Shown: piece by piece, positions 11,755 through 40,480 of the stretch
Numbering within the stretch: position 1 is the stretch's first letter
How the letters are laid out: each line of letters opens with the position of its first letter
NCBI GenBank assembly: GCA_934636825.1
Contig: CAKUBG010000005.1
Coordinates: forward strand, 47,491-111,490
Source of the DNA: an uncultured bacterium
Lineage (GTDB): Bacteria > Vulcanimicrobiota > Xenobia > Xenobiales > Xenobiaceae
Direction: 5' to 3'
DNA length: 64,000 nt
Program-made: the position numbers and the translations under genes
Notes under the pieces: generated by a model
Told to the model about the DNA's origin: nothing
Database searches by the model: none
Seen by the model: only the letters and a program-made list of their open reading frames with translations

Positions 11755-11787
11755 TAGCGGTCCCTCCGTACCGGGCGGGTTAAATAA

Positions 11788-21336: not shown

Positions 21337-21371
21337 GATTTCACAATTGGCAAAGTGTTGGCAAAATAAGG

Positions 21372-22451
21372 CTATCTAACTTCAGGAGGTGGCGGCCCTT
21401 CTCGTTCAATGGGAGGAATGGCGGGGTTTAATTCCTTACGCAGAGCAGCCTCTGATTCCGATAAAGCAAGAGATTCTTTTATTAGGTGCAAAGTTTTAGG
21501 GTAGAGTAAATCCTGTACAAACCGTTTATCTAGTGCTTTTATTTCTGGCTCTCGAAGCAAAACTTCCCATTGCTTTTCTGGGATTAACTTGACGGCTTCG
21601 TCATGTAAAATGCTTAAACGCAATGACGATATTCTGAGTCTTTCCAGTATAATTAAGCATTCTTGAGCTTGTTGAGACTGAAGTTTTGGGTGGGCAATTT
21701 GGCAAAGGTTCTGCAGAGAAATAAGTATTCTCAGAGGATGAAGTTCCAATTGAGAGGCTTTTTTTAGCAACCGGTGACGCTCTGGCGAAAGTGCAAAACC
21801 TGGGGCGGAGGACAGTGGCAAAGGCGCTGTATTTAAGGGAGGTAAACTGAGATTGCGATATAGTCTCAATGTTTTCTCTTCAGCGGCTATATCTTTTCGA
21901 TCGCCTCGGAGCACTTCTGCAAGTGAATCCAGATCTTGCAAGCGACCATAAGCGGCCCAGTGGGCATTTTTCTTCAAAACAGAAATTGCTTTAGTATAAG
22001 TTCTTATATCCGAACCTTCGGAGCCTCCACAAGAGTAAGGAGTCAATGAATCATCTAGACTGAGAAAAACTCGCAGTTGTTCGGTAGAGAGGCGCTCATA
22101 TAACTGAGAATATAGGTTTAGACTATTATCGACTTCTTGTTCGGCCAAGTTTTCCAATAAAGCAAAATGTTGACTGTCGGCGACCGATAGCGGCCAGAGA
22201 CCTTTTTTTTGTAATAGCTTTTGACAGCGCTTAAGTCCGAGCCAGTCTAGGCAAACTTGGCTATTTTCTACATTTCTTAGCGGATTAAAACCGCTACCTT
22301 TGGTAAAAACATAGCCTTCGCGACGCATTTCATATCCGTCTACACTTTCGCGACAGCTGCAAGTGAGTAAAGCCAACTCCACTACAAGTACAAAAGTTAA
22401 ACTGACAATAGCTATAAAAACGTATTTTTTTGAAGTTTGGCTCGCCGTCAT
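21372..22451 (-). CDS. N-terminally anchored hypothetical protein (359 aa)
   Basis: Single N-terminal TM (FIAIVSLTFVLVVELALL) followed by a Leu-rich helical domain. No known motif. Confidence 0.45.
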   Translation of the reverse strand: MTASQTSKKYVFIAIVSLTFVLVVELALLTCSCRESVDGYEMRREGYVFTKGSGFNPLRNVENSQVCLDWLGLKRCQKLLQKKGLWPLSVADSQHFALLENLAEQEVDNSLNLYSQLYERLSTEQLRVFLSLDDSLTPYSCGGSEGSDIRTYTKAISVLKKNAHWAAYGRLQDLDSLAEVLRGDRKDIAAEEKTLRLYRNLSLPPLNTAPLPLSSAPGFALSPERHRLLKKASQLELHPLRILISLQNLCQIAHPKLQSQQAQECLIILERLRISSLRLSILHDEAVKLIPEKQWEVLLREPEIKALDKRFVQDLLYPKTLHLIKESLALSESEAALRKELNPAIPPIEREGPPPPEVR

Positions 22452-22566
22452 ATGAGTGCAAAGCCCTTCGTATAGGGGAAAAGGAAAACCTGCTTTAGAA
22501 ATAGCAGCCTTCTTTATGGTGGTTTAATACTGATTTGAAGCCTATTTTTTGAGCGCAGGTTAATTC

Positions 22567-24546
22567 ATGAATATTATGCAAAGCGAGTCGCCGACTAATG
22601 ATAATAAGCATATGGAGCAAATCGAAAGCCTAACCGGAAAAGCGGTTGGCCATTTCCCCGTACAAATTGAATTTATTTTCGTCGGCCTTTTTTTGGCTTT
22701 GCTTACAATTGCCGCTCTTTGGCCTGCACCAATCCATTTAGAGGAAAATTTAATAGGCGATTATCAAGGTGATTTTTGGAAGCATTTATGGGGCCACTGG
22801 TGGGTACGTGATAGTCTGGCTAAGGGACAAATACCTTTATTCTGCGATTTACTCAATGCTCCACGAGGCGGTTATTTGTTTATTGCCGATCCTTGCAATG
22901 CTATTTTCAGTTATGTCTTTTCCAACTTTGTCGGTTTAGCTGGAGCCTACAATTTAACGATAATTTTTAATTTATGGCTCGGTTTGCTGGCAGCTTGGTT
23001 ACTGGCTCGTTATTTTGTCAAGGACGGAGCTTGCGCTTTGGTGGCAGCTGTTATTTACGGTCTTTCCGCTTATGTGCTTAGTTATCCGGTCTCTTCCGGA
23101 GTAACCGAAACGTTAAATACCGCTTGGGCGCCGTTGTATATTCTTTTTTTACATCGCCTTTTGAAAAATGGTCGAATAGGAGATTTGCTTGGCGCTGCCT
23201 TATTTTTTGCGCTTACCACTTTTTCGTGTTGGTATTATGGCGAATTTATGGCGGTGTATACCAGCTTGGCTTTGGGGTGGTCTTTATTTGAGCTTTTGCG
23301 CACCTTTTGGAAAGGGCGGACTTTCTCTATATCCTCTTTAGTACGTTCGTCTAGAATGAGAAAATCTTGGCGATGTTGTTTACTTGCAAGCTGGAACGAG
23401 TGCGCATGGATATGGAAAAAGCAAATTATAAAAACTGCGGCGGCAATTGTTATAGGGGCGATTATTATTTCTCCTTTTGCTTGGCTTTTCAAGATGACCG
23501 TTTCTAATTCGGCTAATATTGTTATGCCGCGCAAAGCTCCCAAACGTTCCATATTTAACTTCAAAGATTATTTGGGCCAAGCTCCAGAAAAGAGCGTAAA
23601 TCAACATGGCGTACGTGGTTTTCACAATTATACAAATTTGTTGGGCTTAATTTTGCCGGGCAAGGGTAATGCCACAGTTACGTCTACGGTAGACAGGTTA
23701 GTCAGAGTCCATTATTTGGGATGGATAGCTTTACTGTTGGCTTTTGCAGCTTGGCGTCGCCAAACTTGGCGACGAGAATTTTTGTATTGGATAATTGTAT
23801 TCGGATTTTTTATCGCCCTTTCTTTAGGGCCGCGAGTTGTTTTTTCTGATTTTTCTGAGGCAGGCTTTGTCAATCCGTTTTACCTTTTGATGTTTCTCGG
23901 CTTTCCATTCTTTTATAATTTGGCCATTCCGTTTCGCTTTTTGATGTTGGCTCTTATAGGCTTGTCGATAGTGGCTGCTTACGGAAGTAAAGCACTTTGG
24001 GCTGAAGAAGCGCCTGCTCGCAAGTGGTTTTTTTGTTTATTGGCTTCGCTAATGATCTTTGTAGAAACTATTTTCGTATCTCCTTTACCTTGGCCGTTGC
24101 CGATGAGTCCGGCTCAAACTCCGGCTTATTATCAAATGCTAGCTGAGGATCCGCGCTCTTATGCCATAATAGACTATCCTTTCGAGAGGCCCGGAACTAT
24201 TTTGGTACCTGGCGAATATTTCTATTACCAAACTGTACATCGCAAGCGCATACCTTATCGAACCAGTGGAGTTTTGAGCCCGGAGGTAGTGCATAATGCT
24301 TTCATGGAAGAAGTCTTGTTAGCTCAGAGAGGCATTAAACCTTCTTCACAAAGTGAAAGACGATTGCGTGAAGGAGCCAAAGCTCTGTTTGATATGGGGT
24401 TTTATGCTTTTATTTTGCATGAAAATTTGCTGGCCGAATTTTCTGCTCAAGATATAGAAAGTCGTTTGACGCCGATTTTGGGAAAGCCGATGCGCTTCGG
24501 CGACGGTTTGATTGTCTATAATTTGGATTCGCTAAATGATAAATAA
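22567..24546 (+). CDS. large polytopic membrane protein (659 aa), GT-C-like architecture, paralogous to the 19246 gene
   Basis: Similar topology to the 19246 protein and the same style of first-loop motif (GDFWKHLWGHWWVRD). It is transcribed divergently from the 22451 gene. Confidence 0.5.
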   Translation: MNIMQSESPTNDNKHMEQIESLTGKAVGHFPVQIEFIFVGLFLALLTIAALWPAPIHLEENLIGDYQGDFWKHLWGHWWVRDSLAKGQIPLFCDLLNAPRGGYLFIADPCNAIFSYVFSNFVGLAGAYNLTIIFNLWLGLLAAWLLARYFVKDGACALVAAVIYGLSAYVLSYPVSSGVTETLNTAWAPLYILFLHRLLKNGRIGDLLGAALFFALTTFSCWYYGEFMAVYTSLALGWSLFELLRTFWKGRTFSISSLVRSSRMRKSWRCCLLASWNECAWIWKKQIIKTAAAIVIGAIIISPFAWLFKMTVSNSANIVMPRKAPKRSIFNFKDYLGQAPEKSVNQHGVRGFHNYTNLLGLILPGKGNATVTSTVDRLVRVHYLGWIALLLAFAAWRRQTWRREFLYWIIVFGFFIALSLGPRVVFSDFSEAGFVNPFYLLMFLGFPFFYNLAIPFRFLMLALIGLSIVAAYGSKALWAEEAPARKWFFCLLASLMIFVETIFVSPLPWPLPMSPAQTPAYYQMLAEDPRSYAIIDYPFERPGTILVPGEYFYYQTVHRKRIPYRTSGVLSPEVVHNAFMEEVLLAQRGIKPSSQSERRLREGAKALFDMGFYAFILHENLLAEFSAQDIESRLTPILGKPMRFGDGLIVYNLDSLNDK

Positions 24547-25642
24547 GCTAATCGTAAAATATCGAGAATCTGCTAGCCCTTTGCTATTACGCGAATTAAG
24601 GCTTGTTTTAGCTCAAAGCAAGCTTTGCTTTTGGGAAGCTATTTTACCTATCTTTTGGTCGCTTTATCTTGTTTGGAGTTTTTGCTTGGCTTGGGAAGGC
24701 AGCTACCAGCCTGTAATCTCTTGCTCACATATGCTATGTTGGTTGACTGCTGCTTTTATCTTAGGTCAATATCTCGGATTAGCTCCGCGTTTAGCTGCTT
24801 CAATTTGCTCAGATCGCCGCTTGGGCATATACAAAATGCTTAGCGTTACCCCAAGAGGTTGTTGCCGAAGTTTGTCCTTAAAATTGTTGGCTTTTTCAGC
24901 TCCATATCTAATTGAATGGTGCTTATTATCTTTAAGCGGTGCCATTTTCTGTATGTTTACCCCTGAACTTAACGCGGAAATTGTGCTAGCCTCTTCTATA
25001 TACAGTTTGTTGTCTTTGCTAGTAGCCACCTTTGGGGGCACTTGGTGGGGTATCTCTTTTCAAAATACTTCAGATAAGTGTACCGCTTCGTTGCGCAAAT
25101 TGTTAATTACGGCAGCTGTGGGAGCTTTTTGTTTGCACAATTTTTGGCATTTTAGTCAAATGGAAACAGTCTTAGTATTATGTAGCTTGTTAATCATCCT
25201 TTGGAGTGGATCGATACGCATATTTTGGAGTGACTTTTCTATAACTTTAGCTTTATTATTGATAGGATTGTCCTTTGTACCTTCTATAGGTCACTCAGAC
25301 TGGCCGTTGGAAGATTGTTTTAATCCAGTTCGTGTAAGTTTGGCTGGCATGTATGCTCTCGATAGAGAGGCTTTGCATAGTGATAATTTGGCTTCGGATG
25401 GTGCCTATTCTATTTTGCGCGAACATTTAGTCGGCAGCCAAGAATCTCCATATTTGAGTCAGTTGCTCCATCTCTATAACGAAGCTTCTCAAGTGAGTCA
25501 AGAACAAATTTATGCTCAAGTGCGCAGTGAAGCTGAAATCTATTTATTAAGAAGTTGTGGGGCCAATCTTGTTGCATCTGTTGTTTGCGCTCTCGGCGCT
25601 TGTTTGATGCTGCTGCGCTTACGCTCAAGCTTTGAAGTATAA
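24536..25642 (+). CDS. polytopic membrane protein (368 aa), hypothetical
   Basis: 8-10 predicted TM helices. Its start overlaps the preceding gene by 11 nt, suggesting an operon. Confidence 0.45.
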   Translation: MINKLIVKYRESASPLLLRELRLVLAQSKLCFWEAILPIFWSLYLVWSFCLAWEGSYQPVISCSHMLCWLTAAFILGQYLGLAPRLAASICSDRRLGIYKMLSVTPRGCCRSLSLKLLAFSAPYLIEWCLLSLSGAIFCMFTPELNAEIVLASSIYSLLSLLVATFGGTWWGISFQNTSDKCTASLRKLLITAAVGAFCLHNFWHFSQMETVLVLCSLLIILWSGSIRIFWSDFSITLALLLIGLSFVPSIGHSDWPLEDCFNPVRVSLAGMYALDREALHSDNLASDGAYSILREHLVGSQESPYLSQLLHLYNEASQVSQEQIYAQVRSEAEIYLLRSCGANLVASVVCALGACLMLLRLRSSFEV

Positions 25643-27860: not shown

Positions 27861-29303
27861 TCAGCGTCCTATAATTAGAACATAAATGGCTACTTGGCAA
27901 TTCCAAAGAGCGTGAGCTATAACAGACGGCCACAAACTGCCTGTATAGTGACGAACTGCACAAAAGACCATACCTAAGCCGGCCAAAACTAAAATACCTT
28001 GAGGATCGCCATGCACAGAAGAAAACATTAGCGAGCTTATAAGCGCTGCACCGATTACAGTAGCTGTCTTGCCAAGTCCGGAAAAGAGTAAGCCGCGATA
28101 AATAATTTCTTCATAGAGCGGGCCGCTGATTACCAAGAAGAATAACAACCAAAAAATTGGCTCCGGAGCTTCCACAAGGAAGGTGAGCAATATATTGTTT
28201 GACTGTACGGAAGATTGAATAAAAAGCGAAGTTAGCAAAGCCATAAGGGCGGCTGTAAGGCAAGACAAAGCAAAAGCGGCGCAGCCATAGGCTAGATATG
28301 AAGCTTTAAATTCGTGTAAGTGTAAAGCTCGGAATAGCAAAACCACTGATCTTTTTATTCCTGACCAATGGTTAAGAATGGACGTTTCAGCTTCGTCAGG
28401 CTCACATACATATTTGATTGTGAAGGCCAAAATCGCAATAGAAACCACATAGACGAGCATTTGGGAGAAGAACAAAATGACAGGAATATACTGTCTACTT
28501 GGGCCTGTAAAATGGAGCAGCAGAGCAGTTAGTAAAGCACTTAAACAGGCTCCCAACCAGTTTAGAGCTACAAATAAGTATAAGGTGGGAATTGGTTTCC
28601 AAAGAAAATGATCTTCAGATTGTTTCTTTTCCTCATAGCGTTCACTGTTTTGAGAAGAAAACGCCTTGATAGCAAATGCTGCTAATAGAATAAAAGATAA
28701 AGTAACTAAAGCTCCCCAAAGACCTAATATTACCAAGAAACGATCTGCCTGTTGTTGCAAAGAGAGGATACATTCTTGCAATAGTCCGTTTTGTTTCAGT
28801 TGTGCAGTGCCTTTTTGCATAACTTGCATAATGAAACTATAAGCTAAAGGATCGCTGTAAAAATTATCGGTTTCCTTTAGTTCTATATTCAGTAGATTAA
28901 AAGCACTTTGTGTTTCTTCCGGAGTAGGTATTTGTCCATCACTTATTTTTAAGAGGACGTCGGTAACGGAGCTGGCTTCTTCGGCACGAATTTTCTTCAA
29001 AAGAGCTCCAGCTTTGTTAGGTTGGTGGCAAAGGTAATACAAGGAAGCTGCGTTGTGAAGATTAGGACTGGAAGCTTTGTCAAAGTCTATTCCATCCAAT
29101 ATCGCGGCTACTTGACCTTCCATCATGGGCAAATGCCATTTCTGGCTTACACGCATAGCTCTGCAAGCAAGTCTTATTTCTAAATTAGTATGAAAATATT
29201 GTTGCCAAGAAGTGTTGTCGGCATCTCTAAAAAAAGCCGGAATGACCAAAGGCAGCCATAAGGTTAGGGCTACCAGCACTAGTAAAATTCTCTTACCGCT
29301 CAT
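27861..29303 (-). CDS. CPBP-family (CAAX protease/Abi) intramembrane metalloprotease with a large N-terminal extracytoplasmic region
   Basis: Signal/TM at the N-terminus. C-terminal motifs EEIIYRG (motif 1), FSSVHG (motif 2) and HALWN (motif 3). Confidence 0.78.
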   Translation of the reverse strand: MSGKRILLVLVALTLWLPLVIPAFFRDADNTSWQQYFHTNLEIRLACRAMRVSQKWHLPMMEGQVAAILDGIDFDKASSPNLHNAASLYYLCHQPNKAGALLKKIRAEEASSVTDVLLKISDGQIPTPEETQSAFNLLNIELKETDNFYSDPLAYSFIMQVMQKGTAQLKQNGLLQECILSLQQQADRFLVILGLWGALVTLSFILLAAFAIKAFSSQNSERYEEKKQSEDHFLWKPIPTLYLFVALNWLGACLSALLTALLLHFTGPSRQYIPVILFFSQMLVYVVSIAILAFTIKYVCEPDEAETSILNHWSGIKRSVVLLFRALHLHEFKASYLAYGCAAFALSCLTAALMALLTSLFIQSSVQSNNILLTFLVEAPEPIFWLLFFLVISGPLYEEIIYRGLLFSGLGKTATVIGAALISSLMFSSVHGDPQGILVLAGLGMVFCAVRHYTGSLWPSVIAHALWNCQVAIYVLIIGR

Positions 29304-29451
29304 TTGTTGTTATATTTCCAGCGCAATTTGGCATATCCTTGAGTGAAAATTTTCGGGCAGCCCAACTATGCTTGGCGGGCAAACTCTTGGCGGTAATCAA
29401 CCAAATGATTGTTGAGGGGGAATCTGCCTTTTTTTGTGAAAGCTCTCCAGC

Positions 29452-31287
29452 GTGTCTATTTCCAGCAATAAAAATAAAAGTCCGCGCAGTATTTTGATCG
29501 TCGGCGCTTCCAATCTGGAGCAAGAAGCTTTTGCCAACAGTTTGGTAAGGCTTGGTTGTGATGTAAAATTGGCTTCCAGTTTTGAAGAAGCTAAAGAATA
29601 TTTGCTTTCCGGCGAAAATATACAATTTGCGGCTGTCAATACCGACTTCCCCCAGCAAAACGAAATTAGCCGTTTGCTTTTACAACATTCTTTCGATGTA
29701 GAATTATTTTTCTTATTCGATAGTTTGGCTCTAGAGCACGGCTTTACCAAACAAGTTGATGAGAAAATTGCCTCTCCTAGGGTGAGAGCGGCCTATCTTT
29801 GCTATACTTCGTTCGCTTCAGCAAAATATTCTTGTCGACTTATGCGTGCTTGTGGTACGTGGTGGGAAGTTAAAGGGCGTGAAGCTCCCGTACATGAGCG
29901 CTATCGCAAATTGCTCAATCGTGTGCGTCAGGGCGTAGTCGATACCGATAGTAAAGATATTGTGCGTTGGGCCAACAATGCGTTTAAAGGCATGGTCGGC
30001 ATGGGTAACATTGAAGGGCGTTACGTCAGCGAGTTAGTTGATGTGCGTGATATTCCTTGTTTAGATGCTGTTCAAGTGCAATTGCGTAACGGTATTATTT
30101 CTCCCTATGTAGTGCGTTTGCGCTCCAGCGGTCAAGTAGTTGAGGTTGATGCCACGCCTCGCTTCGATAAAGAAGGCAACTATATGGGAAGTGTGGCCTT
30201 AATTCGCCAGGCCCACAATATGCCTGTAGAAGAATTTGTGGCCAGCCGCAACTTAGTCAGCTTGTATAGCTTGGCCTTGCGTTTAAGCCGTGCTTTCGAT
30301 GTTTCTAAAGTTATCAATATTATTACCGAAACTGTGCGCGAGATGTGCGGCTATCGTTGCTGCGGAATTAAGCTTAAAGGTTTTGGCGAAGTTGTCGATC
30401 ATGACGTAGACGGAATAGTTTCTCCTTCAATCAAGCGGACAGTCGATTCTTTTTGCTCTCGCCTTTTGCCTCACCAATCGATTAGAGTTATCAAAGATTT
30501 AGAGCGTGATCCAGATCCTGCGGCCGCTTCGTTGCGCGAAGCAAGTCTTAGTGGCGTTGTTTGTGTGGCTCTGACCGTTGGGGTCGAACATATTGGCTGC
30601 ATTTGGGCTTTAGCCGATAAAGAAAATGCTCTTTCCAGAGAAAACAACTCTTTCCTTATTTCTGTTGGTATTCAGGCTGGTTTAGCTTTGCAAAATGCCA
30701 TCAACGTAAAGCGCCGTTTGGAAGAAGAAGCCAATCGCCGCCGTTTCTATCGTGATGCTTTAAATTCACTTACTTCCGGCAAATTGGTCTTTTGCGAGCG
30801 TGACGAGCTAGATAGTCATTGGGCTAAATGTGGCCGTGAAGTGGCAGTTCTGGCTTTAAAAGAAAAGGCAGATGTTCCTCAATCCCGCCGTATTTCCGAA
30901 AAAGTGATGGAGGAGCAGGGCTTTGGCCAAGATAGGCTCTTCGATATGGTCACTTGTGTATCTGAAGCAGCTACCAATGTAGTTAAATATGGCCCTCCCG
31001 GCAGTATGAGCATAAGAGTAGAGGATGATGGCATCCATGTTCGTTTAGATGATGTCGGCCATGGCATTGCTTTCGACAATTTGCCTAAGGCTGTACTTTT
31101 GCCCGGTTTCTCTATGGGAGAGACTCCCTCTTTGGGATTGGGCTACTCGGTTATGTTGGAAATGTGTGATTGTGTCTATTTATGCACAGGTGACGATGGT
31201 ACTTCTCTGATTTTGGAAATGAAAAAGACAAAAGCCGATCCTTTGGATGCTTTTGTGGGGTTCAGCGGCTTAGATATAAATATTTAG
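29452..31287 (+). CDS. multidomain sensor: degenerate receiver-like N-terminus, PAS, GAF and a C-terminal RsbW/SpoIIAB-type GHKL serine-protein-kinase domain
   Basis: The N-terminus ILIVGASN...AAVNTDFP is receiver-like. A PAS-like mid region is followed by a GAF-like segment (GCIWALADKENALS). The C-terminus has ATNVVKYG...DDGIHVRLDDVGHGI...GLGYSVM, the N/G1/G2 boxes of HATPase_c_2 anti-sigma kinases. Confidence 0.65.
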   Translation: MSISSNKNKSPRSILIVGASNLEQEAFANSLVRLGCDVKLASSFEEAKEYLLSGENIQFAAVNTDFPQQNEISRLLLQHSFDVELFFLFDSLALEHGFTKQVDEKIASPRVRAAYLCYTSFASAKYSCRLMRACGTWWEVKGREAPVHERYRKLLNRVRQGVVDTDSKDIVRWANNAFKGMVGMGNIEGRYVSELVDVRDIPCLDAVQVQLRNGIISPYVVRLRSSGQVVEVDATPRFDKEGNYMGSVALIRQAHNMPVEEFVASRNLVSLYSLALRLSRAFDVSKVINIITETVREMCGYRCCGIKLKGFGEVVDHDVDGIVSPSIKRTVDSFCSRLLPHQSIRVIKDLERDPDPAAASLREASLSGVVCVALTVGVEHIGCIWALADKENALSRENNSFLISVGIQAGLALQNAINVKRRLEEEANRRRFYRDALNSLTSGKLVFCERDELDSHWAKCGREVAVLALKEKADVPQSRRISEKVMEEQGFGQDRLFDMVTCVSEAATNVVKYGPPGSMSIRVEDDGIHVRLDDVGHGIAFDNLPKAVLLPGFSMGETPSLGLGYSVMLEMCDCVYLCTGDDGTSLILEMKKTKADPLDAFVGFSGLDINI

Positions 31288-31333
31288 CCACAGGCCGTTT
31301 GTTAAATAAGCTTAGTTTGGAGCGTGAAATTTT

Positions 31334-33934
31334 TTGCCAATAGTACCGCCTTTAAATACCGAAGCCTATCTTACTTATGAAGAATTGACCGCCTACTTAA
31401 ACAGCATTGCGGAAGCTGTTCCTCAGTTGGTGCGTATTTTCTCTTTGGGAAATACTATGGGCGGCCGCTCCCTGTGGGCGGCAGAAGTTACCAATACCAA
31501 TAACGGAGCCGCCTCTAGTAAGCCGGCTATTTGGATCGATGGCAACATCCATGGCAGTCAATTATCTGCTTCTACAGCTTGTTTGGCTATATTGCAGCGC
31601 CTTTCTGCTGAGTACGGACGCAGTCCCTCCATTACCGAACTGTTGGACAATAATACTTTTTATATCGTGCCCCGTCTGGCTCCCGATGGCGCTGAGTTGT
31701 GTCTGACTTCCGGTTTATCTACTTCTGCCGGTCGTCGTTTGGGATTTTTGGATGGATTACGTGAAGGTCTGGTTCCGGGTGATATTAATGGCGACGGTCG
31801 CATTTTGCAAATGCGTGTCGAAGATCCTTATGGTCAGTGGAAAGTCAGCAAAAGAGACGATCGCTTGCTTATTCCTCGTCAGCCCGGTGACGTTGGCGAT
31901 ACTTACTATCGTCTTTATCGCGAAGGTTTACTCGATAGAGAAGACGGAACTCCGATCCATTTGCGCTTAGTTAACTCTAAGCGCGAGTTGAGCCATGATT
32001 TTACTCAAGAGTGCGGCCCTATCGATCATCACTATGGTGGCAATGGCTTTGTGGGGCCTTTTTCACAAATAGAATCCCGTCTTATCAGTGCTTTTTTGCA
32101 CAGCTTAAACAATTTATGCTTGGCAATATCTTTCCGTAGCGGCTCTGGCACCATTCAAGTGACGTCAGCTCCAGAAGTGCATAGGCGTGATCAGGCCTTA
32201 ATGAAGATTTTAGCTTCAAAAGCTTCTGAACTTAGCAATATTCCCATAGAGGAAGTGAGCGAATGTAGTGACTTCGCCGACTGGGTTTATAAAGAACTTG
32301 GTGTACCTTGTTTGCGTGTTGACGGTTGGAATTTGCTGCGCGAAGCCGGTATAGAGAACCCGGCTGATAAGTCACAGGAACATGCACTGTTGGCTGTATT
32401 GCGTTGGCTTGATTACAATAATCACGGCCAAGGTTTTGCTAAGTGGGAAAAATGTGAACATCCGCAATTGGGTGAAGTTGAAGTCGGCGGCTGGGATACC
32501 TCTGTGAGTTGGAGCAATCCTCCGGTAGGCGAAATGCTGTCTACTATTTGCGAGAGCGAAGTAAATTTGGCTCTTTGCTTGGCTACAGTTGTGCCCAAGA
32601 TCGGTTTGGGTGAATGTCGCGACGAAATTGTAGGCTGGGCTGAGCCTGAAGATGGTGAGGCCGAAGAGCTGCTGCCTTTGCGTATTATTTCTGTGGAAAT
32701 ACGTAATGAAGGTTATTTGCCTACTTGGCTTACCGAAGAATTGCGCTCTAAAGACGAACCTTTAATTTCCGAAATATCCATCCCCGAGAGTGCCGAACTG
32801 CTGATTGGGCAGCATTTAAGTGAGCACGAGCAGCTCTCCGGCACAGTGTCTTTGCATTTGCGTCAAAGCTTAAATGTGCCATTTTTCAGTGGCACTTCCG
32901 AAACCGGTCGTTGTGTAGAAAATTGGCTGGTGCGCGGCAGCGGTGAGGTTGTCGTCTCTGCGGCTCATCCTCGCGGCGGCGTAGTCCAATTTATAAGTGA
33001 TGGTGGGCAAAATGCTTTGCGTCAGCGTTTCAAAGTAAGTAAGCCTAGTGCCATTATTCCCAGCACTTCGCCGGTTCCTTACGTTGTAGCTGTTACTTCT
33101 GCCGCTTTGGCCGCTGCTATTCCGCAAATGACAGGCTTAAGTGCCGCTGCCGAAACGTCTGAAGCGCCGACCTCTACTAAGGCGCCGTCTCTGCCCAGAG
33201 CTGCTTTCAAAGTGCCGTCTTCCACGAAGACAAGTGTTGGGCGCAGCTCTCTGGAGCCTACTCCCGCATCCCAAATAGCTGCAGACGAACCTACTGCGCC
33301 GCCTCGTCCTGTTGTGCGTCCGGTCAAACTGACTGAAGCTACTTCCACAACTGCCAATGAGCCTAAAGTGGAAAATACTCCTCCTGCTCAGCCCTCTGTG
33401 CGTGGAGGCTACCGTCCTATGGCTTTAGGCGGCGCCAAGCGTCCTTCGGCGGTAGAAAAGGCCAATCCACCTGCGCCTGCTCCCCAGGTCGGCGCTTCCG
33501 ATTTTGCTCGTCCTACTGCGACATCTTCTTCTGGAGGCTTACGTAAGGCCACTACTGAGCCTGCCCCTGTTCGCCATGCCGGTTCAGAAGATTCTCCTTT
33601 GCGCAAGGAGCATGCACGCCCCAGAGTACAACCTTCAGGTCGAGTTTTTGGCCAGCCACCTGCCAAAAACGGCATGGCCGCTGCTGTGCGTCAATCTGAA
33701 TCGACTGCTCGCCAGAGCCAGTCTCGCAGCGCCAGAAGCTTAGAAGAAGCAGCCGCAGCTGCCGAACGTCGTGGAGAAGTAAAGCCACATCCATTGCTTC
33801 CAAGTAAGCCTGCTCGTCCGGCTGCGCAACCTCCTGAAGCTGCCGAAAAGCAGATCTCTAGGGAAGATTTTACCGAAGATCCTTTGGCGCCGACAGCACC
33901 GTTGCTTTTGCGACGCAGCCGGGGCGATGAATAG
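31334..33934 (+). CDS. M14 carboxypeptidase-like domain protein with altered zinc-ligand motif and a ~330 aa P/A/S/T-rich disordered C-terminal tail
   Basis: The N-terminal 130 aa match the M14 fold signature (PAIWIDGNIHGSQ..., YIVPRLAPDG), but the HxxE zinc motif reads HGSQ. The C-terminal third is a low-complexity P/A/S/T/R-rich sequence of higher GC. TTG start with GGAG RBS, so the start is uncertain. Confidence 0.6.
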   Translation: MPIVPPLNTEAYLTYEELTAYLNSIAEAVPQLVRIFSLGNTMGGRSLWAAEVTNTNNGAASSKPAIWIDGNIHGSQLSASTACLAILQRLSAEYGRSPSITELLDNNTFYIVPRLAPDGAELCLTSGLSTSAGRRLGFLDGLREGLVPGDINGDGRILQMRVEDPYGQWKVSKRDDRLLIPRQPGDVGDTYYRLYREGLLDREDGTPIHLRLVNSKRELSHDFTQECGPIDHHYGGNGFVGPFSQIESRLISAFLHSLNNLCLAISFRSGSGTIQVTSAPEVHRRDQALMKILASKASELSNIPIEEVSECSDFADWVYKELGVPCLRVDGWNLLREAGIENPADKSQEHALLAVLRWLDYNNHGQGFAKWEKCEHPQLGEVEVGGWDTSVSWSNPPVGEMLSTICESEVNLALCLATVVPKIGLGECRDEIVGWAEPEDGEAEELLPLRIISVEIRNEGYLPTWLTEELRSKDEPLISEISIPESAELLIGQHLSEHEQLSGTVSLHLRQSLNVPFFSGTSETGRCVENWLVRGSGEVVVSAAHPRGGVVQFISDGGQNALRQRFKVSKPSAIIPSTSPVPYVVAVTSAALAAAIPQMTGLSAAAETSEAPTSTKAPSLPRAAFKVPSSTKTSVGRSSLEPTPASQIAADEPTAPPRPVVRPVKLTEATSTTANEPKVENTPPAQPSVRGGYRPMALGGAKRPSAVEKANPPAPAPQVGASDFARPTATSSSGGLRKATTEPAPVRHAGSEDSPLRKEHARPRVQPSGRVFGQPPAKNGMAAAVRQSESTARQSQSRSARSLEEAAAAAERRGEVKPHPLLPSKPARPAAQPPEAAEKQISREDFTEDPLAPTAPLLLRRSRGDE

Positions 33935-34012: not shown

Positions 34013-35047
34013 TTAGTTATAGAGGGCCGGATCGATATATTTTAACACGTGGTAAGTAATAGCCGACATAGTGGCGGCGGCGGGGAGAGTGAAGACCCAG
34101 GCTACCAAAATATTGTTGGCAATACTCCAGCGTACGGCATTTACGCGTTTAACAGCGCCTACACCCATGATACTGGCAGTAATTACGTGAGTGGTAGAAA
34201 TGGGCATGCCTAAAGCTGCAGTTGTTAAAAGGATGGTGGAAGAGGTTAAGTCGGCGGCAAATCCGTTAACAGGTTGCAAGCGAACGACTTTGGCACCTAA
34301 AGTTTTTATGATGCGCCAGCCGCCGCCGGAAGTTCCTAAGGCAATCACGGTAGCACAAGCTACTTTGGTGAACCAGCGTACTTCCAGATCGGGCTGCCAG
34401 TGGTTGGCAATTAAACCGGTGCTAGTAGCGGTCCAGAGGGCTAAAGTTATAATACCCATAACTTTTTGGGCGTCATTAGAACCATGGGAGAAAGCCATAA
34501 GACTGGAAGAGAGCCATTGAGCATACTTAAACTTGTGGCCGATGGAAGGATGCTGGTGACGCAAAATCCAGTACAGCGCGAGCATAATGCAATAACCGAG
34601 CACTAAACCAACAAGGGGGGAAACCAAGCCAGGAATGACTACGTGATCCATAACTCCCCACCACTTAACGCCGTCGGTACCAACGCGGGCTAAAGCTACG
34701 CCGACTAAGCCGCCTACCAAGGCGTGGGAAGAAGAGGAAGGCAAGCCCCAAACCCAGGTGAGTAGATTCCAGATAATGGCGCCTATTAGTGCCGATAGAA
34801 TTAGTGATTGACTATTCATGGCATCGCCTTCTACAATGCCGCTGGTAATAGTCTTGGCTACTCCGGTGAAAAGGAGGGCGCCGCAGAAGTTGCAGCAAGC
34901 TGCCATCAAAACAGCTGTTCTCGGTGATAGTGCTCTGGTAGAAACTACCGTAGCGATAGCGTTGGCTGCGTCGTGGAAACCGTTTACGTAATCGAATGCT
35001 AGTGCAATTATTACGACTGCAGCTAAAATCCAAATGGTTTCATGCAT
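34013..35047 (-). CDS. pit: inorganic phosphate transporter, PiT family
   Basis: The GFHDAANAIAT signature appears near the N-terminus and in the repeated half (GSNDAQK). About 10 TM helices. Confidence 0.92.
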   Translation of the reverse strand: MHETIWILAAVVIIALAFDYVNGFHDAANAIATVVSTRALSPRTAVLMAACCNFCGALLFTGVAKTITSGIVEGDAMNSQSLILSALIGAIIWNLLTWVWGLPSSSSHALVGGLVGVALARVGTDGVKWWGVMDHVVIPGLVSPLVGLVLGYCIMLALYWILRHQHPSIGHKFKYAQWLSSSLMAFSHGSNDAQKVMGIITLALWTATSTGLIANHWQPDLEVRWFTKVACATVIALGTSGGGWRIIKTLGAKVVRLQPVNGFAADLTSSTILLTTAALGMPISTTHVITASIMGVGAVKRVNAVRWSIANNILVAWVFTLPAAATMSAITYHVLKYIDPALYN

Positions 35048-35385: not shown

Positions 35386-35610
35386 GCAGATAAAAATGAA
35401 ACGACCCCCTTGAGTGTGAGTCATAAGGGGGACGCAAGGGATTAGGAGGAACTTTGCTTGATGCCAAAGACGGGATGACTTCGACATTTCCAGCGTTAAG
35501 ATTTCTTCAACGCTCTTAACACTTGTGATTATAAAGGCAAACATACAATAAGTCAACAATAATTTTTCAAATCATAAATTGCTAATTTACAATACTACTA
35601 CGCGTATAAT

Positions 35611-35646
35611 ACACAAAAAATGTATAAAAATATACAATTTTTGTGT
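35611..35646. promoter_or_regulatory. near-perfect 16 bp inverted repeat (candidate operator) next to a TATAAT box, upstream of the MerR-like gene
   Basis: ACACAAAAAATGTATA-AAAA-TATACAATTTTTGTGT, with 15 of 16 positions complementary. TATAAT sits at 35605-35610, immediately 5' of it. Confidence 0.45.
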
Positions 35647-35690
35647 AAAATTTACAAGGTAAAACGGATATTCAAAAGAAAACAATAATT

Positions 35691-36215
35691 GTGATAAAGC
35701 GAATTTCAGATGTAAAACAAATGGAGTTTTTGTTCAGAGCTCCTATATATCTGAGTCAGGGTGAAGCTGCCGAATTTATGCAAGTTTCTGTGAGAAATTT
35801 GCAATATTGGGAAAGCGCCGGATTGTTGCATCGAGAATCACGCCAAAGTGGGCGCGGAGCGCGTTATACCCGTTGGGATTTAATAGAAATAAACTTTATT
35901 CGGAATTTAATTTGTGAATGCGGCTTTACGGTCAATTCGCTTAAGGTCAAATTGGCTTTATTGGAAAGTCCGTATTATTACGATCCGGACGATACTATTT
36001 GGGACAACTACATGCATTGTTGGTGCAGTCGTTCTGATATAGCATGTCAAGAATTAAATAAAGTGAAGCATGCTTTCGCACCTTATGTGCGTCAAATTTT
36101 TGCAAACATGACTGAAAAAGGCGAGCCGGAGGCGGCCAAAGAAACTGTCAATATTTTACGATCTTTAGTCAGAGGACATCGCCCTAAGAAACTACGCTGC
36201 ACCGATAAGACTTAA
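35691..36215 (+). CDS. MerR-family transcriptional regulator (HTH N-terminus), hypothetical effector domain
   Basis: MQVSVRNLQYWESAGLL...ARYTRWDLIEINFIRNL matches the MerR HTH and wing pattern. GTG start at 35691 or ATG at 35721; neither has a clear SD. Confidence 0.55.
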   Translation: MIKRISDVKQMEFLFRAPIYLSQGEAAEFMQVSVRNLQYWESAGLLHRESRQSGRGARYTRWDLIEINFIRNLICECGFTVNSLKVKLALLESPYYYDPDDTIWDNYMHCWCSRSDIACQELNKVKHAFAPYVRQIFANMTEKGEPEAAKETVNILRSLVRGHRPKKLRCTDKT

Positions 36216-36512: not shown

Positions 36513-37928
36513 ATGCAAATGCTGAACAGCGTATCGTCGGCTTTGTCCAATGTCGGAAAAAGCATTGCGCAATCCTCCAGTTTCGGTTCTGCGTCGTCAT
36601 TGGGAAAAGGAGCCAACGGAGCTAATACGAGCTTTACTGCCCGAGGCACTGCCACTTCTCAGTTCCAGCCCGGACAAAACCTGTTCGGTCAAGTAGTCGG
36701 ACGCGAACAGAATGGAAATTTTACTTTGCGTTTTGGCAATACAACTTTACAAGCTAGCGCCAAGTTGCCTTTCAATGTAGGACAGCAACTTAACGTGACG
36801 GTTTCCGGGCAGCAGCGTGGTATGCTCACCCTCGATATGGCAAGCACGCCGTTTTCTTCACTGAATAGCGAGACCGTTACCCAAACTTTGGTGCAACTCA
36901 ACTTGCCTATGTCCGAAGGCAACTTCATGTTAGCCAGTTCTCTAGTGGAACATGGCGCCCCGCTGGATAAAGCCACTTTTCAAAGTATGCAAAAGGCTTT
37001 AGCTCAATTGCCACCTACTTCCGATCCGGCTGTTTTCAGCTCCAGAGTTGGAGCAACTCTGTTTTTGCAAAATAGTCAATTGCCAGTTACTGGTCGCAAT
37101 ATTCTGCTTTTGAGCACTTTTCTATCGCAAAATCCTCAGGTTACTCAGCAGCTTTTCAATATCCAAAGTGAAGTCAAACGCTTGATAAATAATCCTGGCA
37201 ATATGTCTTCCAAAGCTTTGGAAATTTTGAATCAGGTGCCTGGGTTATTGGGAGAAATGGTTTTGGAGCCTGGCGGGAATTTGAAAGGTACTGGCAAGTC
37301 CAGTGGCAAGGCTGCTTTGCTCTTCGATATGGCCAAACAAGCTGGTATCGAAACCAATTTGGGCTTAGTAGGTGGAGGAAGCTCCGATTGGGAACTTTTG
37401 GCTCTGTTGCGTGAATTGCGCAAATTGACCGATGCTCAAGACGCTTCTCTGAGTGCGCTTTTCAAAAATTGTCAAAATTGTGAAGACAATTTGCAAGCCC
37501 AACGCCTGATTAACCAAGGGAAGCCCGATTCTTCTTTCGGCTTTTACTATATGCAAATTCCTTTGCGCCACGAGTTTAGCGAATCGGCTGAAGTTTGGAT
37601 TCGCTACCGTTGGAAAGAAGAAGATGGCAGTCGTGTGGTTGATATCGATGACTCTCATTTAGAATTTGTTGTCAGAACTGATTCTTTGGGAGAACTGTTC
37701 TTTAGCTTGGATATAGGTGCCGGATATGTAGAATTGACGGCTAAATCGGATGACGAATCCGTTGTCGGTTGTCTTGAAGCTTATCTGCCTGTTTTACAAG
37801 AACGTATTGAAGAGCTGGGTTGGAAGGTTGGCTTTTTTGAAGCCGTACTCAATGACAGTGTCGGGGGCCATGAGTTTGTGGGCTGTCAAGAACTTTCTTC
37901 ATTGGAGGGCGTCAATGTGCAAGCCTGA
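36513..37928 (+). CDS. hypothetical protein at the head of the flagellar rod gene block (possible FliK/hook-length-control-like), 471 aa
   Basis: Q/S/N/G-rich polar sequence. The segment GQNLFGQVVGREQNGNFTLRFGNTTLQASAKLPFNVGQQLNVTV is loosely reminiscent of Flg_hook-type beta-rich domains. AGGAGG RBS upstream. Confidence 0.35.
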   Translation: MQMLNSVSSALSNVGKSIAQSSSFGSASSLGKGANGANTSFTARGTATSQFQPGQNLFGQVVGREQNGNFTLRFGNTTLQASAKLPFNVGQQLNVTVSGQQRGMLTLDMASTPFSSLNSETVTQTLVQLNLPMSEGNFMLASSLVEHGAPLDKATFQSMQKALAQLPPTSDPAVFSSRVGATLFLQNSQLPVTGRNILLLSTFLSQNPQVTQQLFNIQSEVKRLINNPGNMSSKALEILNQVPGLLGEMVLEPGGNLKGTGKSSGKAALLFDMAKQAGIETNLGLVGGGSSDWELLALLRELRKLTDAQDASLSALFKNCQNCEDNLQAQRLINQGKPDSSFGFYYMQIPLRHEFSESAEVWIRYRWKEEDGSRVVDIDDSHLEFVVRTDSLGELFFSLDIGAGYVELTAKSDDESVVGCLEAYLPVLQERIEELGWKVGFFEAVLNDSVGGHEFVGCQELSSLEGVNVQA

Positions 37929-38217
37929 AGTTGCTAAAGTCGCTGTCAGTGTGGCTGTTTCTCCTGAAGATGGGACGACCAAAGTCGTGAGTTCGGCTGT
38001 AGGTCAAAAAGCTATCGAAATGGTCGAACAGGCTGAAAAAGAAGGTCTGAACGTTACGCAAGATCCCCAACGTGTGGGAGAATTGCTCAAAGAACAGGGG
38101 AACAAAGCAGCTATAAGCCCTCAGCTTTACGAACTTATGGCTACGGTTCTAGACTTTACTCAAGAATTGAGTGATTTAAAAGCAGGGCGCTTCGCTCAGG
38201 AGCCCGATCAAGAGTGA
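37915..38217 (+). CDS. small hypothetical protein (100 aa) between the 36513 gene and flgF
   Basis: ATG at 37915 has a GGAGGG RBS 6 nt upstream and overlaps the previous stop by 14 nt. The longer track ORF from 37750 overlaps the upstream gene and is unlikely. Confidence 0.4.
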   Translation: MCKPEVAKVAVSVAVSPEDGTTKVVSSAVGQKAIEMVEQAEKEGLNVTQDPQRVGELLKEQGNKAAISPQLYELMATVLDFTQELSDLKAGRFAQEPDQE

Positions 38218-38324
38218 GTTCTGTTAGCCGGAGGCCTTGGTAAAAAGAGGGGCTGAAGGATTTCTATAGAAACGAAAATTTGGGTTCGTATAAGGACGCG
38301 GACCACATAGTCGGAGGTGTTCTA

Positions 38325-39098
38325 ATGCTTGAAGGGATGAGAATGGCTGCTCAGGGTATGATGACCCAGGCCGCTAAACAAGATGTCATCACTAATAACT
38401 TGGCCAATGTAGGTACCGCTGGTTTCCGCAAGGAAAGTGCCCAGATTACCTCTTTTAACGAGATTCTCAATCGTGAAGTCGGTGGCATGGACGGTATGAC
38501 CCAGTCTTCTTACGAGATCTCCACCGCTCCCGGTATGGAAGTTTCCGGTAAACTTTACACCAGCTCGGTGACTCACAACGCTCAGGGTTCATTGAAGGAG
38601 ACCGGCAACCCCTTTGATATGGCCTTGGATGATAATGGACGCGGTTTCTTCACTATCCAGACCAAAGACGGAGTACGCTTTACCAGAGCCGGTAATTTCC
38701 ATCTCTCTACCAATGGCGAATTAGTCACTGCCGATGGTTCTCAGGTGATGGGTCATCGTGGCCCCATCAAATTACAGGGCAGCAATTTCACTGTATCTAA
38801 CGACGGTGTAATCTCCAGCGACGGTCGTCCCATCGACAAGATCTTGGTAGCCGTTTTTGACAATACCGACCAATTGAAGCGCACTGGCGACAACCAGTTC
38901 ACCGCCACAACCAAAGTTAGCGCTACTAACGATTTCCAGCTCAAACAGGGATATGTTGAGCAAGCTAACGTCAACGCTTTAACCGAAATGGTCGACTTGA
39001 TGATGGTGACACGTAACTACGAAGCCAACCAGAAGGTTCTTCAGGCCAACGACAAAATGTTGGAAAAGACTGTCAATAACGTCGGAACCGTTCGCTAA
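38325..39098 (+). CDS. flgF: flagellar basal-body rod protein FlgF/FlgG family (proximal rod, likely FlgF)
   Basis: The N-terminal NNLANVGTAGFRK and the C-terminal rod-protein helix (...ANVN...E..D.I...R.YEAN.K) are present. ATG at 38325 follows a GGAGGTG RBS. Confidence 0.78.
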   Translation: MLEGMRMAAQGMMTQAAKQDVITNNLANVGTAGFRKESAQITSFNEILNREVGGMDGMTQSSYEISTAPGMEVSGKLYTSSVTHNAQGSLKETGNPFDMALDDNGRGFFTIQTKDGVRFTRAGNFHLSTNGELVTADGSQVMGHRGPIKLQGSNFTVSNDGVISSDGRPIDKILVAVFDNTDQLKRTGDNQFTATTKVSATNDFQLKQGYVEQANVNALTEMVDLMMVTRNYEANQKVLQANDKMLEKTVNNVGTVR

Positions 39099-39224
39099 TT
39101 CGATTAAACTGACAGTTTGAAAAAATACAGCTTGTCCGCCCAAATAAAAACGGCGGGCAGCTGGATTATAGTAAGAGCTTCTGCTAAGCTCGTACAACAA
39201 GTCTAATTTGGAGGAACAAATATT

Positions 39225-39995
39225 ATGATGCGTTCGCTTTATACTGCTGCTTCCGGTATGATGGCCCAGCAGATGAATATGGATAATATTTCCAACAACC
39301 TGGCTAACGTACAGTCCACCGGTTTCAAGAAAACCCGCGTAGATTTCCAGGACTTGCTCTATGCTACTATGCAAGATCCCGGCACTGAAGCTACTGCTGG
39401 TACCCAGATCGGTATGGGTGTTCGCGCTTCTTCTACCGAGCGTATGTTCTCTCAAGGCTCCTTGCAGAAAACCGGCAACCCTTACGATGTAGCTATCCAG
39501 GGTGATGGCTTCTTCAAAGTCAGCATGCCCGACGGTACTTCCGCTTACACTCGTGATGGCGCTTTCAAATACGATGGCGACAAAGGCGAGATCGTAACCA
39601 GCGCTGGTCAGTCACTCGGCATTGCCGTTCCTAAAGATGTAACCAATATCGAAGTTCGCCCCAACGGTGAAGTTTTCGGTGTGCGTATCGATGGCGACGG
39701 TCAGCCCGAAAAGATCGCTCAGGTAAAACTCACCCGCTTCCTTAATCCTGCTGGCTTACAGGCTATCGGTGGCAACCTCTATGTTGAGACTCCCGTCGCT
39801 GGCGCCAAAACTGAGAGTATCCCCGGTGAAGATGGTTTAGGCGTTTTGGCTCAGGGTCACCTCGAGAAATCCAATATCAACGTAGTTGAGGAAATGATTT
39901 CTATCGTTCAGGCTCAGCGCGCTTTTGAAATGAACCAGAAGGGCGTCCAAGCTGCTGACGAAATGATGAGAATGACCAACCAGCTTCAGAGCTAG
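39225..39995 (+). CDS. flgG: flagellar basal-body rod protein FlgG
   Basis: MMRSLYTAASGMMAQQ...NNLANV.STGFK...LEKSNINVVEEMISIVQAQRAFEMNQK is near-canonical FlgG. Confidence 0.92.
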   Translation: MMRSLYTAASGMMAQQMNMDNISNNLANVQSTGFKKTRVDFQDLLYATMQDPGTEATAGTQIGMGVRASSTERMFSQGSLQKTGNPYDVAIQGDGFFKVSMPDGTSAYTRDGAFKYDGDKGEIVTSAGQSLGIAVPKDVTNIEVRPNGEVFGVRIDGDGQPEKIAQVKLTRFLNPAGLQAIGGNLYVETPVAGAKTESIPGEDGLGVLAQGHLEKSNINVVEEMISIVQAQRAFEMNQKGVQAADEMMRMTNQLQS

Positions 39996-40065
39996 TTTCG
40001 ATTGATATTTTGACCTCTGCGTCTGAATATAATCGGGCGCTTGGGGTATCTATTTGGAGGCTATT

Positions 40066-40374: not shown

Positions 40375-40428
40375 CCAAAGTACGGCTTTTGCCGCTGTTA
40401 GCGTCGGAGCTTCGTATCTATTTTAAGC

Positions 40429-40480
40429 AAAATGGGCTGCGCTAAGTTGTTTGACAACTCGGCACAGCCCATTTAATTTT
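40429..40480 (+). terminator. rho-independent terminator after the rod-gene block
   Basis: AATGGGCTG...CAGCCCATT stem followed by TAATTTT. Confidence 0.5.

Follow-up and report, generated by a model that had tools for sequence, protein, structure and literature searches.

A Vulcanimicrobiota clade of tailed M14-fold proteins with a decaying active site, encoded in most lineages near a sensor GHKL ATPase

In a 64,000-nucleotide (64-kb) stretch of contig CAKUBG010000005.1 from an uncultured Xenobia bacterium, hereafter the window, we studied two consecutive genes that encode a multidomain sensor with a GHKL ATPase domain (a putative Ser kinase, called the kinase below) and a protein with an M14 carboxypeptidase fold. 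The M14-fold protein represents a real and apparently undescribed clade of bacterial M14 pseudopeptidases, in which the active site has degenerated, the fold is held under strong purifying selection and a long C-terminal tail carries short conserved motifs. A functional coupling between this protein and the kinase is the reading that we put forward, tentatively, for the pair. The nearest named homologs of the locus proteins come from Candidatus Bruticola (class Xenobia, phylum Vulcanimicrobiota, formerly Eremiobacterota). A preliminary description of this DNA had announced two open reading frames (ORFs) of 611 and 866 amino acids (aa), the latter with a TTG start, and both exist as claimed. 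However, the position from which it let the pair begin, 29293, belongs to a spurious minus-strand ORF, and the kinase gene begins at 29452. The two genes, the gap between them and the regions of the M14-fold protein are as follows:

29452-31287, plus strand: gene for the GHKL sensor ATPase and putative Ser kinase, ORF of 611 aa with a GTG start
31288-31333, no strand: gap between the kinase and M14 genes, 46 bp, with GGAG ~11 nt 5' of the TTG
31334-33934, plus strand: gene for the M14-fold protein, ORF of 866 aa with a TTG start
31334-32419, plus strand: M14 carboxypeptidase-fold domain, residues 1 to ~362, catalytically degenerate
32420-32998, plus strand: C-terminal beta-rich domain of the M14 subfamily, residues ~363-555, with an HPQLG..GGW motif
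32999-33934, plus strand: low-complexity basic tail, residues 556-866 and the stop codon (A 53, P 44, S 34, R 27; K+R 42 against D+E 28)

The homologs of the M14-fold protein fall into two groups, tail-less proteins of ~560 aa found in many phyla and tailed proteins of 730-890 aa. In the tail-less group, nine columns are invariant in 85 of 85 homologs and read H-E-R-N-R-H-R-Y-E; they correspond to H69, E72, R127, N144, R145, H196, an extra Arg, Y248 and E270 of carboxypeptidase A. Columns were matched through the motifs around them (HxxE; DLNRNF; H-[ST] after a strand; Y-P...DW.Y; E-x-W); the H196 column was recognised because it is invariant and reads H-[ST] behind a beta strand, without residue-level superposition. 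At the same columns the window protein reads H-Q-R-S-H-R-V-I-D, and the alignment thus brings out no intact catalytic set. Of the zinc ligands, H73 is kept at the H69 position, while Q76 replaces E72 and R268 replaces H196. At the positions that bind the C-terminal carboxylate, S220-H221 replace N144-R145 and I303 replaces Y248. The equivalent of R127 is kept as R135, in a low-confidence loop of the structural model; the extra Arg is V276, and the general base E270 is D330. Because two zinc ligands, the NR pair, the Tyr and the general base are all replaced, the window protein is predicted to be incapable of zinc carboxypeptidase function. The call of a pseudo-carboxypeptidase in the preliminary description is therefore stronger than it was claimed to be, since the equivalents of N144/R145, H196, Y248 and E270 are lost in addition to the change of E72 to Q.

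Within the tailed clade these columns vary widely. The H69 position can be R, N, C, K, A or Q and the H196 position R, G or S; the E270 column, which is E in 85 of 85 tail-less homologs, reads D, S, R, N, Q, V or E. Individual tailed proteins show the following patterns over the nine columns:

P0028 (L085:10001-12604): HERNRHRYE, full set
P0032 (L089:8001-10343): HERNRHRYV, only the general base missing
P0021-P0025 except P0024: HERDRHH(F/I)R, with Y at the seventh position in P0025; zinc ligands kept, general base lost
P0017: CGRTRRTCS, dead
P0029: RD---GLTN, dead
P0034: KERERGYYQ, dead

The clade can be read as a graded series of catalytic decay, from P0028 through P0032 and P0021 to the dead members; in P0021 (L003:10001-12277) the zinc ligands are kept and the equivalents of N144, Y248 and E270 are lost. 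The locus of P0028 has no adjacent kinase. The different patterns between tailed lineages suggest relaxed selection on catalysis. Since P0028 combines a tail with the full catalytic set and the other members decay in several ways, the alignment indicates that the tail was gained first and that catalysis would have become dispensable afterwards, the clade deriving from an active ancestor that was already tailed.

Loss of catalytic residues is not accompanied by decay of the gene. In comparison with the locus of the same genus (L005), the ratio of nonsynonymous to synonymous substitution rates (dN/dS) of the body is 0.011 at a synonymous rate (dS) of 0.82, and that of the kinase core is 0.009, dS for body, tail and kinase core being ~0.8-1.0, so purifying selection on the body is as strong as on the kinase core. 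The window protein retains the complete M14 fold and the beta domain of the subfamily, and dozens of non-catalytic columns are invariant across the tailed and tail-less groups. By its fold, its loss of residues and its retention under selection, the protein is assigned from sequence to the M14 pseudopeptidases. Moreover, at fourteen positions invariance is confined to the tailed clade. Those in the beta domain include G399, W435, an inserted P448-L449-R450, E455 and G537, and the insertion is lacking in at least 80 of the 85 tail-less homologs. The clade-specific residues, which may mark a new interaction surface, lie in the window at:

32531-32533, plus strand: residues 399-400
32636-32683, plus strand: residues 435-450
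32942-32944, plus strand: residue 537

A, P, S, R and T abound in the tail of ~310 residues, which is net basic. Tails of 190-336 residues occur in 36 of 36 tailed homologs and in none of the tail-less ones. Alignment and regular-expression searches of the tails placed four motifs in the window protein:

33407-33418, plus strand: G-Y-R-P, residues 692-695
33587-33610, plus strand: E-D-S-P-L-R-K-E, residues 752-759, found in a subset of lineages, with a conserved Ser-Pro
33638-33661, plus strand: G-R-V-F-G-Q-P-P, residues 769-776, with R770 and G773 invariant across 24 aligned tailed homologs
33896-33916, plus strand: A-P-L-L-L-R-R, residues 855-861, with P856, L858, L859, R860 and R861 nearly invariant

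All 24 aligned tailed proteins (24/24) have the motifs GRV[FL]G-x-PP and C-terminal [AT]PLLLRR, in full or in recognisable form, and G[YF][RK]P, [ED]DSPLRKE, VRPVxL and KPHPLL are restricted to subsets. The dN/dS of the tail, 0.086, indicates purifying selection. We view the tail as a linker that carries short motifs conserved across the phylum. The preliminary description had presented it as a long, disordered, low-complexity sequence of higher GC content; its length, low complexity and GC richness hold, whereas a featureless disordered segment does not agree with the conserved motifs and the selection on them. Nor does the GC rise point to a different origin. The GC content of the tail is 0.566 against 0.479 in the body, but the corresponding values at third codon positions (GC3) are 0.405 and 0.432, with 0.406 for the kinase gene, and the increase is confined to codon positions 1 and 2. 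As GC3 is unchanged, the step is compositional, and a foreign origin of the tail was rejected. The jump from ~0.48 to ~0.57 at the tail start is also what would speak for an artefact, that is read-through, a frameshift, foreign DNA or a mis-assembly fusion. We regard this as virtually refuted by the GC3 values, by the purifying selection on the tail, and by the 36 tailed homologs, which come from independent assemblies and all have a tail with these motifs in frame.

We also considered the tail as a transmembrane or sorting signal and rejected it, as its hydrophobic segment VPYVVAVTSAALAAAIP is restricted to the Bruticola subgroup, with poly-Pro elsewhere, and the C-terminal LLL is too short to form a membrane helix. 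Because no N-terminal signal peptide is apparent in the translation and no conserved hydrophobic segment occurs in the tail, the M14 protein is probably cytoplasmic.

The tailed homologs form 36 clusters, and every named one comes from a Xenobia/Eremiobacterota-type metagenome-assembled genome (MAG) or from an unclassified 'bacterium'. Among these sequences, the tailed form of the M14 protein is confined to Vulcanimicrobiota (Eremiobacterota). To describe its gene neighbourhood we used 15 distinct tailed loci, namely the window, L001/2, L003/4, L005, L006, L007, L008, L010 and L085-L091. A kinase homolog lies at most 5 kb from the M14 gene in 13 of the 15, upstream and on the same strand in 12, and this proximity persists at M14 identities down to 34-40%. 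The arrangements are:

kinase directly adjoining M14: window, L005, L007, L088
only gene X between kinase and M14: L003/4, L008, L010, L089
opposite-strand lactamase_B gene between them, with or without X: L001/2, L006, L091
HEAT-repeat and M48 genes between them: L086
kinase and M14 rearranged, on opposite strands and 4.4 kb apart: L090
no kinase within 8-10 kb of M14: L085, L087

By comparison, a kinase homolog was found near none of the tail-less M14 genes in 75 loci from other phyla (0/75), and ORF clustering of the neighbours in these 75 loci gave no recurrent family, the best one occurring in 7 loci. Conservation of the pair, which the preliminary description had treated as a unit, is thus real among relatives. 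However, the two genes are not the whole unit, because X intervenes in relatives, and their adjacency is not universal (L085, L087, L090).

The product of gene X, helical and 311-352 aa long, has one CxxC...CxxC zinc ribbon, and several members also have an acidic C-terminus. The gene lies -1 to ~80 nt upstream of tailed M14 in seven distinct loci, and is a tighter M14 partner than the kinase. Its positions include:

L003:8942-9997
L001:8983-9963
L085:8966-9997
L087:7012-8001
L089:6953-7918

The X family comprises 23 clusters, whose named members are all 'hypothetical protein' from Xenobia/Eremiobacterota-type MAGs. Searches with tblastn and, over six-frame ORFs, with a hidden Markov model (HMM) found no gene X in the window, L005, L006, L007, L086 or L088, no X-sized gene is called beside M14 in L090 and L091, and the family search returned no Bruticola member. 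The window lineage has lost gene X. In four lineages, a minus-strand lactamase_B/HAGH_C gene (glyoxalase II-like) was noted directly upstream of X or M14 (L001:8106-8858; L006:~9016-9762; L085:8019-8756; L091:8822-9574); it has no homolog in the window.

The first gene of the pair encodes a soluble sensor in which a pseudo-receiver, PAS and GAF domains and a signalling helix precede a GHKL domain whose ATP-binding motifs are intact:

29482-29874, plus strand: pseudo-receiver domain, residues ~11-141, from AlphaFold topology and a PDB profile search
29890-30210, plus strand: PAS domain, residues ~147-253, from PAS_8/PAS_9 (149-251) and TIGR00229 below cutoff, AlphaFold secondary structure and Foldseek
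30226-30693, plus strand: GAF domain, residues ~259-414, from PF01590 at 22.4 bits over residues 283-414, exactly at cutoff, with AlphaFold and Foldseek in agreement
30637-30783, plus strand: long signalling helix and conserved RRxFYRDAL..T.GKL linker, residues ~396-444, the helix spanning 396-440 in the model
30784-31224, plus strand: HATPase_c_2 domain (RsbW/SpoIIAB-type GHKL), residues ~445-591, from PF13581 at 35.7 bits against a cutoff of 27.4, matching 471-588

The architecture proposed in the preliminary description, a pseudo-receiver followed by PAS, GAF and RsbW-type modules, is borne out by Pfam, NCBIfam, AlphaFold, Foldseek and the PDB profile search. The AlphaFold model, with a mean predicted local distance difference test score (pLDDT) of 77.7, runs from a (beta-alpha)5 domain through PAS and GAF to a 45-residue helix and GHKL, and Foldseek matched it to PAS-GAF(-PHY) photosensory modules. 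The N-terminus has no Pfam Response_reg match; a profile of 12 homologs searched against the PDB returned almost exclusively receiver domains (best E-value 1.7e-6), and the model of this region has the CheY-like (beta-alpha)5 topology with a pLDDT of 84-91 across residues 11-90. The phosphoacceptor had been called doubtful, and rightly so, as the phospho-Asp position is Asn63 in the window kinase and Ser in the family consensus, and the acidic Mg-binding Asp-Asp pair is replaced by Gly18-Ala19. The pseudo-receiver is also the least conserved region of the kinase, with a dN/dS of 0.071 against 0.009 for residues 111-611.

In the GHKL domain, the N-box (SEAATNVVKYG), G1 (DDVGHGI) and G2 (SLGLGYS) are intact, and their motif columns are invariant in 17 homologs. 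No His is invariant between residues 396 and 470 in the same 17 homologs, and no HisKA-type Pfam match occurs in the kinase, so that a histidine kinase identity was rejected. Since the ATP-binding motifs are invariant and an invariant linker His is lacking, the domain is best described as an RsbW/SpoIIAB-type GHKL ATPase; its serine kinase activity is assumed. Full-length relatives are rare, with 16 representatives at E <= 1e-30 in an exhaustive search of 1.84 billion representatives, and this full-length family was recovered solely among relatives in Vulcanimicrobiota. Another ~1350 representatives (E <= 1e-10) share only residues ~412-595, the helix and GHKL domain encoded at 30637-31224 of the window, at 30-43% identity and always at the C-terminus. 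Ten of these helix and HATPase_c_2 proteins were sampled; their N-terminal modules were REC, PAS, GAF or STAND-GAF (Pkinase-AAA_16-GAF), and none contained HisKA, STAS or PP2C. The module looks like that of a large class of sensor proteins without a known output partner.

As for how the two genes might work together, we lean, at somewhat less than even probability, to a coupled model in which the kinase acts with the pseudopeptidase as a regulated scaffold or adaptor. In such a system, the PAS/GAF sensor would set the ATP-dependent state of the GHKL domain, which would bind and/or serine-phosphorylate the pseudopeptidase, most plausibly in its tail, and this would alter the partners recruited by the tail motifs and the clade-specific beta-domain surface. 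The pseudopeptidase would serve as a regulated scaffold or adaptor, not as an enzyme, and zinc-ribbon protein X would be a third component in most lineages, the window lineage doing without it. In favour of coupling, the kinase, X and tailed M14 families were all recovered from one phylum only and co-localise. In the window, moreover, transcription of the kinase and M14 genes as one unit is likely, because the gap is only 46 bp and a terminator scan of it revealed no terminator-like site. Several observations weigh against coupling. The putative functional link between the kinase and the M14 protein is one of synteny, the activity of the GHKL domain as a kinase is itself an assumption, the presence of EDSPLRKE does not track that of the kinase, and known RsbW/SpoIIAB kinases phosphorylate a folded STAS domain, not a disordered tail. 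Other points speak at the same time for genes that are functionally unrelated neighbours, in which case the pseudopeptidase would act with X or alone, the kinase would belong to another pathway and the gene order would be inherited. Two tailed loci, L085 and L087, retain the X-M14 pair but show no kinase in the 8-10 kb around it; in L090 a rearrangement has put the M14 gene on the other strand, at a distance of 4.4 kb; unrelated genes (lactamase_B, HEAT, M48) are inserted in L001, L006, L086 and L091; and X, with gaps of -1 to ~80 nt, pairs more tightly with M14. Furthermore, the genes for ThrRS and succinate dehydrogenase share the conserved block, in which CPBP and MerR are also often syntenic, so that inherited gene order may explain some of the adjacency. 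Unrelated neighbours, which we consider rather unlikely, do not readily account for three phylum-only families being found together, for a kinase that stays within 5 kb of M14 genes of such low identity, or for a window lineage that brought the two genes to 46 bp without a terminator.

A more specific version of the coupled model would be a phylum-specific, STAS-less partner switch, in which a PAS/GAF-gated RsbW-type kinase acts on the M14 tail and so controls the assembly of a scaffold that includes X and possibly CPBP or MerR. This we hold to be improbable; if true, it would provide the first bacterial M14 pseudopeptidase in signalling and the first substrate for the orphan sensor-HATPase_c_2 class. 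Equally improbable in our view is that the kinase is a classical anti-sigma or partner-switching kinase whose sigma factor, STAS and PP2C partners are encoded elsewhere, the M14 protein being uninvolved. The best NCBIfam matches of the kinase are indeed RsbA, SpoIIAB and RsbW, but with scores far under their cutoffs (38.4 against 210, 25.1 against 135 and 17.3 against 145 bits, respectively). In agreement with the preliminary description, which had seen no STAS antagonist or PP2C partner in the window, a Pfam scan (E <= 1e-3) of 46 of the 49 non-overlapping window ORFs of >= 90 aa found no STAS and no PP2C/SpoIIE domain, and the Pfam-annotated neighbourhoods of relatives contained no STAS, PP2C or sigma factor either. 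The only sigma factor of the window, a group-3 protein with regions 2, 3 and 4 (40619-41419), lies 9.3 kb downstream, within a cluster of flagellar rod genes, and L005, of the same genus, was the only fetched locus in which it was seen. With no synteny beyond the genus, it was rejected as the target of the kinase and kept solely as part of this low-probability alternative, against which the ten sampled relatives also speak, with their REC, PAS or GAF modules and never a STAS or PP2C domain. Finally, the M14 protein could still be an enzyme with altered chemistry or metal (through H73, H221 and D330), or a non-hydrolytic binder of peptide C-termini, its own PLLLRR docking in the pocket. Retention of H73 and R135, the conservative change of the general base from E to D in the Bruticola group and the very strong purifying selection on the body would fit such a role. 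The free variation of the nine positions in the tailed clade, however, is expected of relaxed selection on the active site, not of a new catalytic centre, and we judge this explanation very unlikely.

A 2024 review of metallopeptidase pseudoenzymes lists as M14 pseudopeptidases AEBP1/ACLP, CPXM1, CPXM2, domain III of carboxypeptidase D and yeast Ecm14, all of them eukaryotic and secreted or extracellular, and no bacterial one (PMC11266112). They resemble the window protein in keeping the fold with substitutions at H69/E72/H196, R127/R145 and E270, and are thought to work by protein-protein interaction instead of catalysis (PMC11266112). However, their subfamilies are N/E or A/B and their additional domains are discoidin, transthyretin-like or pro-domains, whereas the window protein is bacterial, lacks a signal peptide, belongs to a ~560-aa bacterial subfamily with its own beta domain, and has a motif-bearing disordered tail and a linkage to a sensor kinase. 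The tail-less ~560-aa 'M14 family metallopeptidase' subfamily, found in Chloroflexota, Rubrobacter, Burkholderiales, Cyanobacteria, Deinococcota and Armatimonadota, shares 30-36% identity over the 555-residue body, the same two-domain layout and the invariant structural residues W371, HPQLG 376-380, GG 385-386, N395, P397 and N458. Unlike the tailed clade, it keeps the nine catalytic and binding residues and has no tail, linked kinase, X or conserved neighbour; we know of no functional study of it, although no literature search was aimed at it. Bacterial peptidase folds that became regulators after losing catalysis are exemplified by EnvC and NlpD, degenerate LytM/M23 factors, and in RNase E the folded N-terminal domain is continued by a long stretch of disorder whose short conserved microdomains bind partners. 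Both are analogies of concept only, with no homology, and EnvC and NlpD act in a different cellular compartment.

The kinase shares with RsbW, SpoIIAB and RsbA an HATPase_c_2 domain with N-box, G1 and G2 and the lack of a phospho-accepting His domain. RsbW and SpoIIAB, however, are single-domain proteins of ~140-160 aa encoded beside a STAS antagonist and a sigma factor, whereas in the window kinase the domain is C-terminal in a 611-aa sensor with no adjacent STAS, PP2C or sigma gene. With the broad class of sensor-helix-HATPase_c_2 proteins (~1350) it has residues ~412-595 in common, and only ~16 proteins share the full pseudo-REC/PAS/GAF architecture. To our knowledge, no substrate has been assigned to this class, and a literature search found no study of it. 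Searches on Xenobia/Eremiobacterota, bacterial pseudopeptidases, GAF/PAS partner switching and HATPase_c_2 likewise returned no description of the clade or of the gene pair, in line with the earlier statement that the architecture is not a described signalling unit.

A pseudopeptidase acting as a binding protein is an established concept; the apparent novelties are the bacterial setting, the motif-bearing tail, the linkage to a kinase and X, and a catalytic-decay series that can still be seen. For pseudoenzyme biology, the clade would set a bacterial and apparently cytoplasmic example beside the known eukaryotic extracellular ones (PMC11266112), and a decay series with the fold under constant constraint is a good system for the question of how an enzyme turns into a scaffold. 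For orphan kinases, it supplies a testable candidate partner for one member of the sensor-HATPase_c_2 class with its ~1350 representatives. In terms of phylum biology, CPBP, kinase, X, tailed M14 and MerR form a conserved block specific to Vulcanimicrobiota, a phylum with very few cultured members.

The pair is flanked in the window by the following elements:

27861-29303, minus strand: CPBP/Rce1-like intramembrane glutamic protease, 480 aa, divergent from the kinase gene; PF02517 at 77.6 bits, residues 383-469
29304-29451, no strand: divergent intergenic region between the CPBP and kinase genes, 148 bp, presumed promoter region
34013-35047, minus strand: PHO4-family phosphate transporter, PF01384 at 319 bits, convergent with the M14 gene
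35691-36215, plus strand: MerR-family regulator, PF13411 at 36.8 bits

The divergent CPBP protease of the preliminary description is confirmed by its Pfam match, and YEEIIYR, FSSVH and HALWN, which correspond to the family motifs EExxxR, FxxxH and HxxxN, can be read in its translation; NCBIfam CPBP models also match, with scores under their cutoffs. This protease is a phylum-wide syntenic neighbour. An Rce1-like gene adjoins the kinase in L003, L086, L088, L089 and L090, lies a few kb upstream in L091 and was found by tblastn in L005-L010. In the presumed promoter region, a sigma-70 consensus scan gave no site above chance. The PHO4 transporter is syntenic in some relatives (L001, L005, L007). 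The MerR gene lies just 3' of M14 in most relatives (synteny in L003, L005-L008, L010, L086, L088, L089 and L091), at a distance of ~11 kb downstream in L008 and L010. Upstream of the MerR gene, we noted a sharp intergenic GC trough (35450-35750; 0.287 against ~0.45 regionally).

Some further observations concern the surroundings of the module. A block of four ORFs without a Pfam match (696, 359, 659 and 368 aa) occupies 19246-25642 of the window, and L090 has, across the kinase from its M14 gene, a similarly sized and oriented four-gene block without a Pfam match (8886-15248). The two blocks are likened by size and orientation, and the position of the latter suggests that the rearrangement in L090 swapped a four-gene block with the M14 gene. 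A CHAT-domain (caspase-like) protein of 1050-1180 aa is encoded a few kb from the module in three loci (L003:1159-4317, L085:2661-6194, L087:11799-15230), and S66 and CHAP peptidase genes are also nearby in L085 and L087; none of the three kinds of gene occurs in the corresponding part of the window.

The flagellar cluster (36513-41419) comprises a FliK-like protein with a weak Flg_hook match, two FlgF/FlgG-type rod proteins, a rod-binding FlgJ-like protein and the group-3 sigma factor, which is probably FliA-like. The cluster suggests that this gut-associated Xenobia bacterium is motile. Farther downstream, a 1047-aa fusion (46501-49644) joins a nucleotidyl transferase, a hexapeptide repeat, phosphoglucomutase/phosphomannomutase domains I-III and DUF5752 in an unusual all-in-one architecture for sugar-nucleotide synthesis, and a 617-aa protein (53301-55154) combines a SpoIIIAA-like AAA ATPase with PTPase and R3H domains.

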